Part shown: positions 11,684 through 18,239 of the stretch, piece by piece
Layout: every line of letters starts with the position of its first letter
How positions within the stretch are numbered: the stretch's first letter is position 1
Assembly (NCBI GenBank): GCA_028279595.1
Contig: JANQNK010000001.1
Span: forward strand, 69,016 to 133,015
Source: Thermoplasmatota archaeon
Lineage (GTDB): Archaea > Thermoplasmatota > JAKEGO01
DNA: 64,000 nt
Direction of reading: 5' to 3'
The notes under the pieces: model-generated
What the model was told of the DNA's origin: nothing
Databases searched by the model: none
Seen by the model: the letters and a program-made list of their open reading frames with translations, nothing else
Program-made: the position numbers and the translations under genes

Positions 11684-11837
11684 GGAGGAGACGGTTCTCC
11701 TGTGTCCTCACTGTCTGAAGTCCAATCTGAAGGTCGTCGGCGGTTTCATGGGGACTCAATACCTCTGCAAGGATTGTGGGTATCAGGGTGCCTTGATCCT
11801 CGAGGTCGACGAGAAGGATGTTCCAGATCAGGATTGA
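11673..11837 (+). CDS. 54-aa zinc-ribbon protein (not in ORF track)
   Basis: MMSEEETVLLCPHCLKSNLKVVGGFMGTQYLCKDCGYQGALILEVDEKDVPDQD, with CxxC-x17-CxxC. The ATG overlaps the PqqD-like stop by 11 nt, suggesting translational coupling. Confidence 0.5.
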   Translation: MMSEEETVLLCPHCLKSNLKVVGGFMGTQYLCKDCGYQGALILEVDEKDVPDQD

Positions 11838-14425
11838 AGCTGTTTTAATTGGTCAGAGTATTGTTTCAATCTTCGCTTATCTCCACTTATAGAATAGAGG
11901 TTACATTTCTCTTCGAAAACTAGTTCAAGTGCTTTTTCATCATTAAGCTCACGAGCAATCTCTTCACCCATATTAAGAAATCGCTCTGCTATCTGATAAT
12001 CTCCTCTCATTGCGTAAAATGACCCATAACCAACCTTTGAATATATGAATCCTGAGGCAAAATGGACGTTGTAAAAGGTTCTCGTACTCTCCTTTAGATA
12101 TTCTAATGCCTTAGAAAAATCGCTTGATTCAATATAAACGCTGGCCAAATTATATTGCATTACTGCAGTTAACCGATAGTTACCTGTTGATAATCCTATC
12201 TCAATCCCGCGAATCCAATTTCGTTTCGCAGAATGCAAATCACCCTGTCTGTAATATAAACGTCCAACATAGTTCAATGCCTCTGCAAGATTGTATAATG
12301 CCCCTTCCTCTTCGAAAATTCGTGCAGCTTCAAGTGCACAATTGAGGTTTTCGTCAGTTATGAAACTTCTTGCCATCAGGACCTTTCCCTCAAGAATATT
12401 ATCCTTCTCTCCTTTTGCGAGAACAATGGCTTCTTTAAAGGCATCTTCACCTTGATCCTTCTTCCCCAATCGTGTGAACGCTTTCCCCTTCCAATGTAAC
12501 GCCTCTGCCCTATTCATAGGAGTAACAAATTCATTGTCAACTATTATTTCATCCATCATAGCAATACATTTGTCAAATTGCCCCTCGTAATAATATCCAC
12601 GTCCAATGATCATTTTACCCTTATATTTGAACTTATCATATTCGGATAGACTGTTGGACTCGATACTTTTAATAATTTCTTTAGTTTCATGATATTCTCC
12701 TAAGGATAAATGTGTTTCTAATCTGAATATATTGAAACGAGATAACCACTCAAGATCAATAACATCAACAAAATTCTCGATTATCTCCTGTATTTCACCC
12801 ACATATCCGTATTCAATAAATCGCGGTAAGAATTCATTTAACAATTCTATACCTTTTGAAAAGGATTTTCCATACATGTAGTGATAAAATGCTTCAACCT
12901 GATCTTCGAATCGAGATTCAGATAATGATTTAGCTGCTTCTATGTGAAGATCTCTCCTCATTGACTCAGGAATTCCTTCATAAATAACTCCACGAATCAT
13001 ATCGTGAAGAGCTATTTCACTACCTGTTTCAGCGATTAAAGATAGTGAAATTAATCGGAATAATATATCAATATCTTCTTCCGTTCTTGTAATTAAATCA
13101 ATGCTAATTGGTTTTCTATAAACTGCAACTTTACGGAGAAATGAACGCAAATCCGGAGAGAGATTATTCATAATCTCATCTTTTACATACGTTGATAAAT
13201 TCGAAGCCCCATCGAGTCCATCTGTCCCCCCTATTAGATCGATGGCAAGCGGATGGCCCCCAGTCACTTGATAGATTGTTGGATAATGAGAAGGATCAAT
13301 AATCCCTCTCTCCTCTAGCAGAGACTTCATTGAGGTGTAATCAATGCCACCAAGATGCATCTCATAAACCTTTTTTTCTGCGATCACGTCTTTTTGACCA
13401 TAGAATTCCGGACTCAACCTAGAAAGAACGCACATATGAAGGTCATCGGAACTCGATACAATTGTGAATATCATACTGATAAGTCGTTTGGTATCCTCAT
13501 TCGCTTTTTGATAGTCGTCGAATACGATAATAACATTTTCTCCGCTGAGATCTTCAGAAATAATTTGATGTACCTCCCAGAGGTCAAAGTGCTGTATCCC
13601 ATCTACATCTCCGTCGTGTAATCCAGCCTTGAGATAATCCATGAGTCGAGCCTTATTAATATCATTTAGAAACTTCGATAGGACGACTAATATACTTCGT
13701 GCAGAGTCCCATTCATGTATCGGGTAATAAATCGTTTCATAACCATAATAGGTGGATAAAAAACTCGATATTAATGACGTTTTCCCCATTCCAGGAAGGC
13801 CAATTATTACTATTGTGTTAGGTCCATTATCGATGAGATCTTCAAGGAGTCCCAACTCATTCTCACGCCCAACAATTTTGATTTCAGGTAAAGAAATATG
13901 GTGATTGATACGGCCAATTTCATCTATGACGGATTTTAAAGATATATTCTCAATAAGGTCTCCTTCAGTAACGATATTAGAGAATACTTTCTCAAACCTA
14001 ATAAAAAATTCAAATGTAGGAATTTCCGCTCCATATATCCTGTAAATCTGAGAAAAAGTCATGTGCTCTAGTGTTCCATCTTTTAATATTTGGAATTCCT
14101 CGTTATTTACTCTGGACGCGACTTCGTTCGCTACTGTATACCCTTCTGTTGATAAGAAATATACAAATCGAACGCGGCGCCCCCCCTCAATATTTGACTT
14201 TTTTTGCTCCACAAGGTTCATATGACGCAACTCTTTCAAAGCCCTTGAAGCATGATTCCATCGAATGCCGACCGATTCTGCAATACCTTCTTGGGTGATA
14301 TCATGAGGAAGACTTTTTACCACAAACTCCGCATCCATATCTATGGGGTCCAACATATTATCGATCGGGAAATCCAAGAGGAAGAACAAGACACGGTCCT
14401 TTACCGTTAGCTCTTCGAATGTCAT
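11828..14425 (-). CDS. STAND NTPase: N-terminal wHTH, NB-ARC-type ATPase, C-terminal TPR array (STAND-1)
   Basis: wHTH ITQEGIAESVGIRWNHASRALKELRHMNLVEQ. Walker A GLPGMGKTS, Walker B IIVFDDYQ, NB-ARC GxP motif TGGHPLAI. About 350 aa of TPR-like repeats. Gene is AT-rich. TATA-like TTTTATATATTAAAAG upstream of the ATG. Confidence 0.8.
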   Translation of the reverse strand: MTFEELTVKDRVLFFLLDFPIDNMLDPIDMDAEFVVKSLPHDITQEGIAESVGIRWNHASRALKELRHMNLVEQKKSNIEGGRRVRFVYFLSTEGYTVANEVASRVNNEEFQILKDGTLEHMTFSQIYRIYGAEIPTFEFFIRFEKVFSNIVTEGDLIENISLKSVIDEIGRINHHISLPEIKIVGRENELGLLEDLIDNGPNTIVIIGLPGMGKTSLISSFLSTYYGYETIYYPIHEWDSARSILVVLSKFLNDINKARLMDYLKAGLHDGDVDGIQHFDLWEVHQIISEDLSGENVIIVFDDYQKANEDTKRLISMIFTIVSSSDDLHMCVLSRLSPEFYGQKDVIAEKKVYEMHLGGIDYTSMKSLLEERGIIDPSHYPTIYQVTGGHPLAIDLIGGTDGLDGASNLSTYVKDEIMNNLSPDLRSFLRKVAVYRKPISIDLITRTEEDIDILFRLISLSLIAETGSEIALHDMIRGVIYEGIPESMRRDLHIEAAKSLSESRFEDQVEAFYHYMYGKSFSKGIELLNEFLPRFIEYGYVGEIQEIIENFVDVIDLEWLSRFNIFRLETHLSLGEYHETKEIIKSIESNSLSEYDKFKYKGKMIIGRGYYYEGQFDKCIAMMDEIIVDNEFVTPMNRAEALHWKGKAFTRLGKKDQGEDAFKEAIVLAKGEKDNILEGKVLMARSFITDENLNCALEAARIFEEEGALYNLAEALNYVGRLYYRQGDLHSAKRNWIRGIEIGLSTGNYRLTAVMQYNLASVYIESSDFSKALEYLKESTRTFYNVHFASGFIYSKVGYGSFYAMRGDYQIAERFLNMGEEIARELNDEKALELVFEEKCNLYSISGDKRRLKQYSDQLKQLQS

Positions 14426-18142: not shown

Positions 18143-18239
18143 ACCATATCCAGCATTCCCGCCAGTATTATTTAAACCCAATGCGGGGTCCAGGCATATC
18201 GATATATATCCGGTTGAAGATATTGTCATCCGGTGCGGG
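18143..18239. promoter_or_regulatory. bidirectional promoter spacer with two opposed TATA-like boxes
   Basis: attatttaaa at 18167-18176 serves the minus gene (24 nt to ATG 18142). atatatat at 18202-18209 serves the plus gene (about 30 nt to ATG 18240). Both imply leaderless transcripts. Confidence 0.55.

Follow-up and report, generated by a model that had tools for sequence, protein, structure and literature searches.

The window analysed here, a 64-kb stretch of DNA from an uncultured Thermoplasmata archaeon, contains a locus in which two large STAND genes bracket a small operon encoding a caspase-fold protein without catalytic residues (the dead caspase) and two peptides of about 20 residues (Table 1). 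The whole analysis is based on metagenome-assembled sequence. STAND1 is divergent from the cassette, which has the order pepA, caspase-fold gene, pepB, and STAND2 is convergent on it; coordinates and strands agree with the arrangement given in an earlier note made from the sequence alone. Each of the three cassette genes is preceded by a GGAGG-type ribosome-binding site. The locus is surrounded by housekeeping genes, and synteny is kept between species. As the module occupies the identical chromosomal site in species whose proteins are 51-66% identical, we conclude that it has been inherited vertically. The region had been described as largely AT-rich. This holds mainly for STAND1 (GC 0.377 and GC3 0.335, versus about 0.58-0.60 in the flanking genes) and not for the cassette and STAND2, which have a GC of about 0.49-0.50. 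In the window the module borders on an insertion of low GC content, which encodes an Sll1717-family ATPase weakly matching an anti-phage protein; this insertion is not present in the related locus L003 and is therefore placed outside the module. Targeted literature searches gave no published description of a gene set combining STAND, dead caspase and peptides, in line with the initial impression that the locus does not correspond to a described system.

Table 1. Positions of genes and other features of the locus within the 64-kb window.
Feature	Position	Strand	Description and basis
STAND1	11828-14425	minus	865 aa; wHTH-NOD-TPR; ORF and Pfam
Divergent promoter region STAND1/cassette	14426-14573		Sequence and conserved blocks in a three-species alignment; putative function
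pepA	14574-14636	plus	20-aa micropeptide MPGKYGLLVRMESLKEIGRN; ORF and ribosome-binding site
Pseudo-orthocaspase	14650-15345	plus	231 aa; predicted secreted or membrane-anchored; fold model and hhalign
pepB	15352-15417	plus	21-aa micropeptide MVKGKYSHLVHAETLKELGLK; ORF and ribosome-binding site GAGGTGAT
Palindrome GGCCTCAAGTGAGGCC	15406-15421		Spans the pepB/STAND2 stop overlap; candidate two-way terminator hairpin
STAND2	15410-18142	minus	910 aa; wHTH-NOD-TPR; probable start
Divergent promoter region STAND2/small wHTH gene	18143-18239		Alignment of window, L003 and L009; putative promoter function
Small wHTH protein	18240-18629	plus	129 aa; divergent from STAND2; weak DUF6293_C similarity

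STAND1 and STAND2 are both intact ORFs, and their products are paralogs (27% identity over 821 aa, E 2e-81). The STAND2 ORF extends over 15410-18229 (939 aa). However, the ATG at 18142 is the likely true start, judging from the aligned orthologs and from a TATA-like box that is conserved at about 18168-18180; it yields the approximately 910 aa proposed before. The STAND1 transcript is probably leaderless. Above-threshold Pfam matches in both proteins were AAA_16, ATPase_2 (PF01637) and TPR_12 (E 1e-11 for STAND1 and 1e-27 for STAND2). When an AF2 model of N-terminal residues 1-200 (pLDDT 74) was searched with Foldseek, the best PDB matches were the MarR-family proteins ZitR, MepR, MexR and ST1710, which supports the prediction that the N-terminal output domain of the STAND proteins is a DNA-binding wHTH; no output or effector domain beyond this wHTH was found in either protein. 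The two proteins do have a wHTH-NOD-TPR architecture in common, the NOD being the STAND ATPase core. The motifs on which that architecture had been proposed are all found in the sequence: Walker A (GLPGMGKTS in STAND1, GIAGIGKSS in STAND2), Walker B (IIVFDD and LLIFDD) and GxP (TGGHPLAI and TGGHPLSI); a sensor-1 Arg was found too. STAND1 also has an MHD-like hHD motif (LHD), which in an alignment to PDB 6mfv falls on VHD of the Pyrococcus protein PH0952, containing the winged-helix-subdomain His (H382) that contacts ADP. STAND2 has VSD at this position, and has thus kept every STAND core motif but this His. STAND1 orthologs are 66% (L001/L003) and 51% (L002) identical. The closest relatives of STAND2 among the examined loci, according to whole-length tblastn, are convergent STAND genes at other dead-caspase genes (L037, 38%; L008, 33%; L036, 32%).

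A profile of the STAND family matched 6mfv_A (PH0952) with an E-value of 1.2e-44, query residues 180-772 aligning to residues 8-605 of the chain, so that the match spans NOD, arm and TPR. The single proteins matched the same structure as well (STAND2, E 1e-20; STAND1 NOD, E 3.9e-14), and no STAND structure other than PH0952 scored below E 1e-3 for the NOD. These matches place STAND1 and STAND2 among the PH0952-clade STAND ATPases, of which, given the low identity to PH0952, they form a separate Thermoplasmata subfamily. The original designation as NB-ARC NTPases was not retained: in the Pfam search, strict NB-ARC (PF00931) scored 19.7 bits for STAND1 and 16.6 for STAND2 versus a gathering cut-off of 23.5, and only the P-loop half was matched. 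The passages that deal with PH0952, a Pyrococcus horikoshii STAND protein of solved structure (PDB 6mfv), place its clade between MalT and APAF1 and present it as a predicted transcription factor of archaea whose DNA-binding domain is ArsR-like; they name neither an inducer nor target or partner genes (PMC6468293). Like PH0952, the proteins described here are archaeal and combine an N-terminal ArsR/MarR-type wHTH, NOD, arm and TPR sensor in the same order, with the same GxP; unlike PH0952, they are tied to a dead-caspase and peptide cassette, which they flank as a pair in some lineages.

Several other families were compared. MalT, the activator of the E. coli maltose regulon, likewise belongs to the STAND transcription factors and has a TPR-type sensor; the passages on its mechanism in the PH0952 paper describe inducer binding, followed by ADP/ATP exchange, oligomerisation and promoter activation (PMC6468293). 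Unlike the proteins studied here, in which the DNA-binding domain is N-terminal, MalT binds DNA through a C-terminal LuxR-type domain of a different fold and senses maltotriose, and the MalT model NF003420 (NCBIfam) scored only 20.8 and 35.8 bits versus a cut-off of 537. Actinobacterial AfsR/SARP-type regulators (wHTH-BTAD-NB-ARC-TPR) resemble the present proteins in having an N-terminal winged helix, a STAND ATPase and TPRs, but no OmpR-type SARP or BTAD domain is present here, and the NCBIfam AfsR model gave a weak match (50 bits versus a cut-off of 1430) limited to the TPR region of STAND2. RRNPP receptors (Rap, Rgg, NprR, PlcR, PrgX, AimR) consist of an HTH and a TPR peptide sensor and have very short peptide genes adjacent to them; they have no ATPase core, are bacterial or phage-encoded, and their peptides are exported and then re-imported. 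The micro-ORFs beside HTH/TPR regulators at our locus are reminiscent of this family, Rap phosphatases are among the PDB matches, and STAND2 has a weak RNPP_C match (16.8 bits versus a Pfam cut-off of 26.5). Unlike in RRNPP systems, the HTH is separated from the TPR by a STAND NOD, and PepA and PepB are hydrophilic, with no visible export signal.

The 231-aa product of the middle cassette gene had no Pfam match, even at E-values up to 1. The confidence of its AF2 model is low (pLDDT 58, pTM 0.63); Foldseek searches with this low-confidence model returned metacaspases 6w8s and 8a53 as best matches (E 1.5e-4 to 6e-4, probability 1.0), with legumain and PIGK ranking lower. An hhalign comparison with an active Peptidase_C14 protein (L033; probability 98.7, E 3.5e-16) maps the lost catalytic dyad: the His is replaced by Asn110 (SGHG to GDNG) and the Cys by Asp152 (DSCHSGG to SFDYSGG). 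As both catalytic residues are replaced, the protein is a pseudo-enzyme, in agreement with its first annotation as an inactive protease. The family to which it had been assigned, Peptidase C13 (PF01650), is not supported by the sequence: there is neither a Pfam match nor a His-Cys dyad, the fold matches clan CD, and the detectable active relatives are Peptidase_C14. A distant relative, P0028, carries a precomputed weak C13 match. Family-wide, the dyad is either Asn/Asp or has the His retained with the Cys replaced by Arg or Asn; the L008-type paralogs have His and Arg.

We name the protein a pseudo-orthocaspase. An N-terminal signal-like hydrophobic segment, read from the sequence, precedes the caspase (clan CD) fold, and an EF-hand-like loop, DADANEDGVVSFEE, lies at the C-terminus. 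The loss of His and Cys makes it most likely that the dead caspase is a calcium-dependent binding or surface protein and not a protease. Bacterial pseudo-orthocaspases, such as Synechocystis SyOC, also have a caspase p20-like fold with a replaced His-Cys dyad, but there the substitutions are Tyr/Ser (PMC6426788). Unlike the bacterial proteins, the present family has an apparent signal peptide and the EF-hand-like loop, and lies beyond the Pfam p20 model. A 2019 survey of orthocaspases did not find pseudo-variants in Archaea (PMC6426788). The genetic linkage of an APAF1-sister-clade STAND to a caspase-family protein is shared with the Apaf-1/caspase-9 apoptosome and with prokaryotic STAND-caspase systems. 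However, in contrast to Apaf-1/caspase-9, the caspase relative is dead and predicted to be exported, the predicted STAND output is DNA binding and not protease recruitment, and neither CARD-type nor effector-associated adaptor domains were detected here.

The two micro-ORFs noticed in the cassette proved to be conserved genes. PepA and PepB have 11 of 20 residues in common, seven of which are specified by different codons. Compared with its orthologs in L003 and L002, pepA shows 4-7 synonymous versus 1 non-synonymous codon changes, and its nucleotide identity with L002 is 89.5%, compared with only 33% in the 60 nt upstream. In L036, L037 and L040 a homolog of pepA immediately precedes the dead-caspase gene; for pepB, orthologs are present in L003 and L006, and L037 has a homolog in the corresponding place. 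Five lineages have peptide homologs, with the core motif L-[VI]-R-x-E-S-[LM]-K-E-[IV], always next to a dead-caspase gene; no further copies away from such a gene were found in about 405 kb of loci plus the window. The motif is kept where the dead caspases are only 33-43% identical, and is common to upstream and downstream copies. The mostly synonymous changes, the preserved core motif and the separate ribosome-binding sites together indicate selection on the peptide product. Thus, pepA and pepB are real, paralogous genes under purifying selection, and the two peptides are the most conserved elements of the module.

In the STAND1/cassette intergenic region, TATA-like boxes are located at about 14443-14459 (for STAND1) and 14527-14541 (for pepA), and the pepA ribosome-binding site GGAGGAGGTG at 14556-14565. 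The palindrome AAATTAC-N5-GTAATTT, at 14475-14493, lies between the two boxes and may have a role in regulation. It is only partly conserved in the three-species alignment, and its core TTAC-N5-GTAA, which has one match in the 64-kb window, is not significant on its own because 22 of 100 shuffles likewise gave one match. Another palindrome, GGTnATnACC, was matched exactly nine times in the non-redundant loci (376 kb); four of these sites are upstream of dead-caspase cassettes (two in L008, one each in L035 and L036). The exact sites of L035 and L036 are positioned about 8-10 nt upstream of a TATA-like box, a position taken in L008 by a further copy with a single mismatch; the window's own promoter has none. 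Upstream of STAND2, towards the small wHTH gene, the alignment of the window with L003 and L009 shows two TATA-like boxes, GTATTATTTAAA and GATATATATCC, consistent with a divergent promoter. Where the stop codons of pepB and STAND2 overlap convergently by 8 nt lies the palindrome GGCCTCAAGTGAGGCC, which is conserved in L003 and L006 and folds as RNA with -20.5 kcal/mol (z = -2.27), making it a candidate two-way terminator. No Rfam matches were obtained at the locus.

A convergent STAND2-type gene lies directly downstream of the dead caspase in the window and in L003, L008, L035, L036, L037 and L038, that is, in all seven lineages (the window plus six) having a dead-caspase relative with enough downstream sequence; none of the seven has a dead caspase without a STAND neighbour. 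In the distant lineage L037 the full layout of STAND, pepA-caspase-pepB and STAND is repeated. The pairing persists at 28-43% dead-caspase identity, where the other neighbours are all different: an HD-domain gene in L036, an M20 peptidase in L037, Cupin and RNA polymerase subunit L in L035, and a GuaA-like gene in L008. Members of the wider STAND family are mostly found among unrelated housekeeping genes (RecJ-like, ThiE, EF-1alpha, GlnA). The linkage is therefore limited to STAND2-type genes at dead caspases. The co-conservation that the earlier note had set as a test comes out on the side of a module; it applies to this pair, and in L037 to the entire layout, but not to the STAND family as a whole. 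In a neighbour-joining tree the cassette-linked STANDs did not form one clade (3 of 100 bootstraps). The layout constant in all lineages is the convergent one, which is unusual for a regulator and its target; only STAND1-type genes are divergent.

The interpretation that we favour, and to which we give about an even chance, is that the locus is a lineage-specific regulatory module of Thermoplasmata in which ligand-gated STAND transcription factors control the adjacent operon. By analogy with MalT and PH0952, autoinhibition of the STAND proteins would be lifted by a ligand that binds the TPR and arm region. Exchange of ADP for ATP would then lead to oligomerisation, clustering the wHTH domains on operator DNA, and the bound STAND proteins would switch transcription of the small operon in one direction or the other, and probably that of their own genes as well. 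The main operon product would be the exported caspase-fold protein lacking the catalytic His and Cys. PepA and PepB may bind the TPR sensors as their cognate ligands or modulate them, providing feedback control, and the STAND proteins may act as sensor and partner, STAND2 being without the ADP-clamping His of the closed state. PH0952-clade regulators, which are closest to Apaf-1 and MalT, would thereby gain their first candidate target and ligands. However, L008, L035 and L038 have the STAND and dead-caspase pair without recognisable peptides, which shows that the peptides are not obligatory ligands for every member. In addition, no export signal is visible in PepA or PepB and the dead caspase is predicted to be exported, which leaves any direct interplay between them doubtful.

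A more specific proposal, drawn by analogy and in our opinion unlikely, is a peptide-gated switch: the peptides would be inducers or anti-inducers, each matching one STAND; the pair would resemble sensor and helper NLRs, with STAND2 primed; and the output would be the surface-binding dead caspase. If true, this would join RRNPP-like peptide signalling to an Apaf-1-related, ATP-driven oligomerisation core, and would constitute the first STAND with a peptide ligand and a prokaryotic partnership of STAND and caspase family in the clade closest to the apoptosome.

Somewhat less probable is an immune or conflict module of the NLR or Avs type, in which the TPRs would sense a virus or foreign protein, the STAND proteins would oligomerise and set off a protective response, and the caspase and peptides would be effectors, decoys or toxin-like partners. 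Repeat-sensor STAND ATPases are reportedly established immune switches, and caspase-fold partners are said to be common in conflict systems. The strongly deviant GC of STAND1, the amplification of the dead caspase to four tandem copies in L008, the narrow and patchy distribution of the module and, in the window, the adjoining insertion with its Sll1717-family ATPase would all fit such a function. However, a PADLOC scan matched no Avs or other defence STAND model and gave only generic TPR, PDC-S73 (14 bits) and wHTH-region CARF/Csa3 matches, no relatives of the module were found in the viral contigs searched, and the proteins were not assigned to the defence STANDs that PADLOC covers (Avs, bNACHT and others), as they lack both a specific model match and an enzymatic or toxic effector domain. 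The sole output domain is instead the predicted DNA-binding wHTH, the caspase relative has no dyad and is predicted to be exported, and vertical inheritance at one chromosomal site, together with the absence of the insertion from L003, also argues against a conflict system. The choice between regulon and immune module, which the earlier note considered undecidable, therefore leans towards a regulon, in view of the DNA-binding output, the lack of PADLOC and viral matches, the syntenic chromosomal locus and the conserved palindromes.

On a par with the immune reading in probability, the micro-ORFs could be cis-acting control elements, that is, a leader and a trailing ORF functioning in translation coupling or in antisense overlap with STAND2, while the STAND proteins sense an unrelated small molecule, as MalT-type regulators do according to the passages cited (PMC6468293). 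In L003 the stop codon of pepA runs into or adjoins the start of the dead-caspase gene (ATGA), as does that of an upstream ORF in the corresponding position in L035, pepB lies in the convergent STAND2 overlap inside the hairpin, and three lineages lack recognisable peptides. Conservation of the amino acids through synonymous changes, survival of the core motif in diverged cassettes, and upstream and downstream copies that have the same motif and their own ribosome-binding sites speak, however, for selection on the peptide product. Least probable of all is a neighbourhood without function, with STAND proteins controlling distant genes and an unrelated surface-protein operon inherited alongside: although the wider family mostly adjoins housekeeping genes and convergent orientation alone is no sign of co-regulation, the pairing is kept while all other neighbours change, and a STAND is present in 7/7 informative lineages.

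With respect to the regulatory module that we favour, it is uncertain whether the small wHTH protein belongs to it. Its DUF6293_C similarity (E 8.6e-5) is below the Pfam gathering score, and the ORF at this position in L008 has no similarity to it. As tblastn shows the gene to be conserved at the same position beside STAND2 in L003 (84% identity) and L009 (70%), it may encode an accessory regulator.

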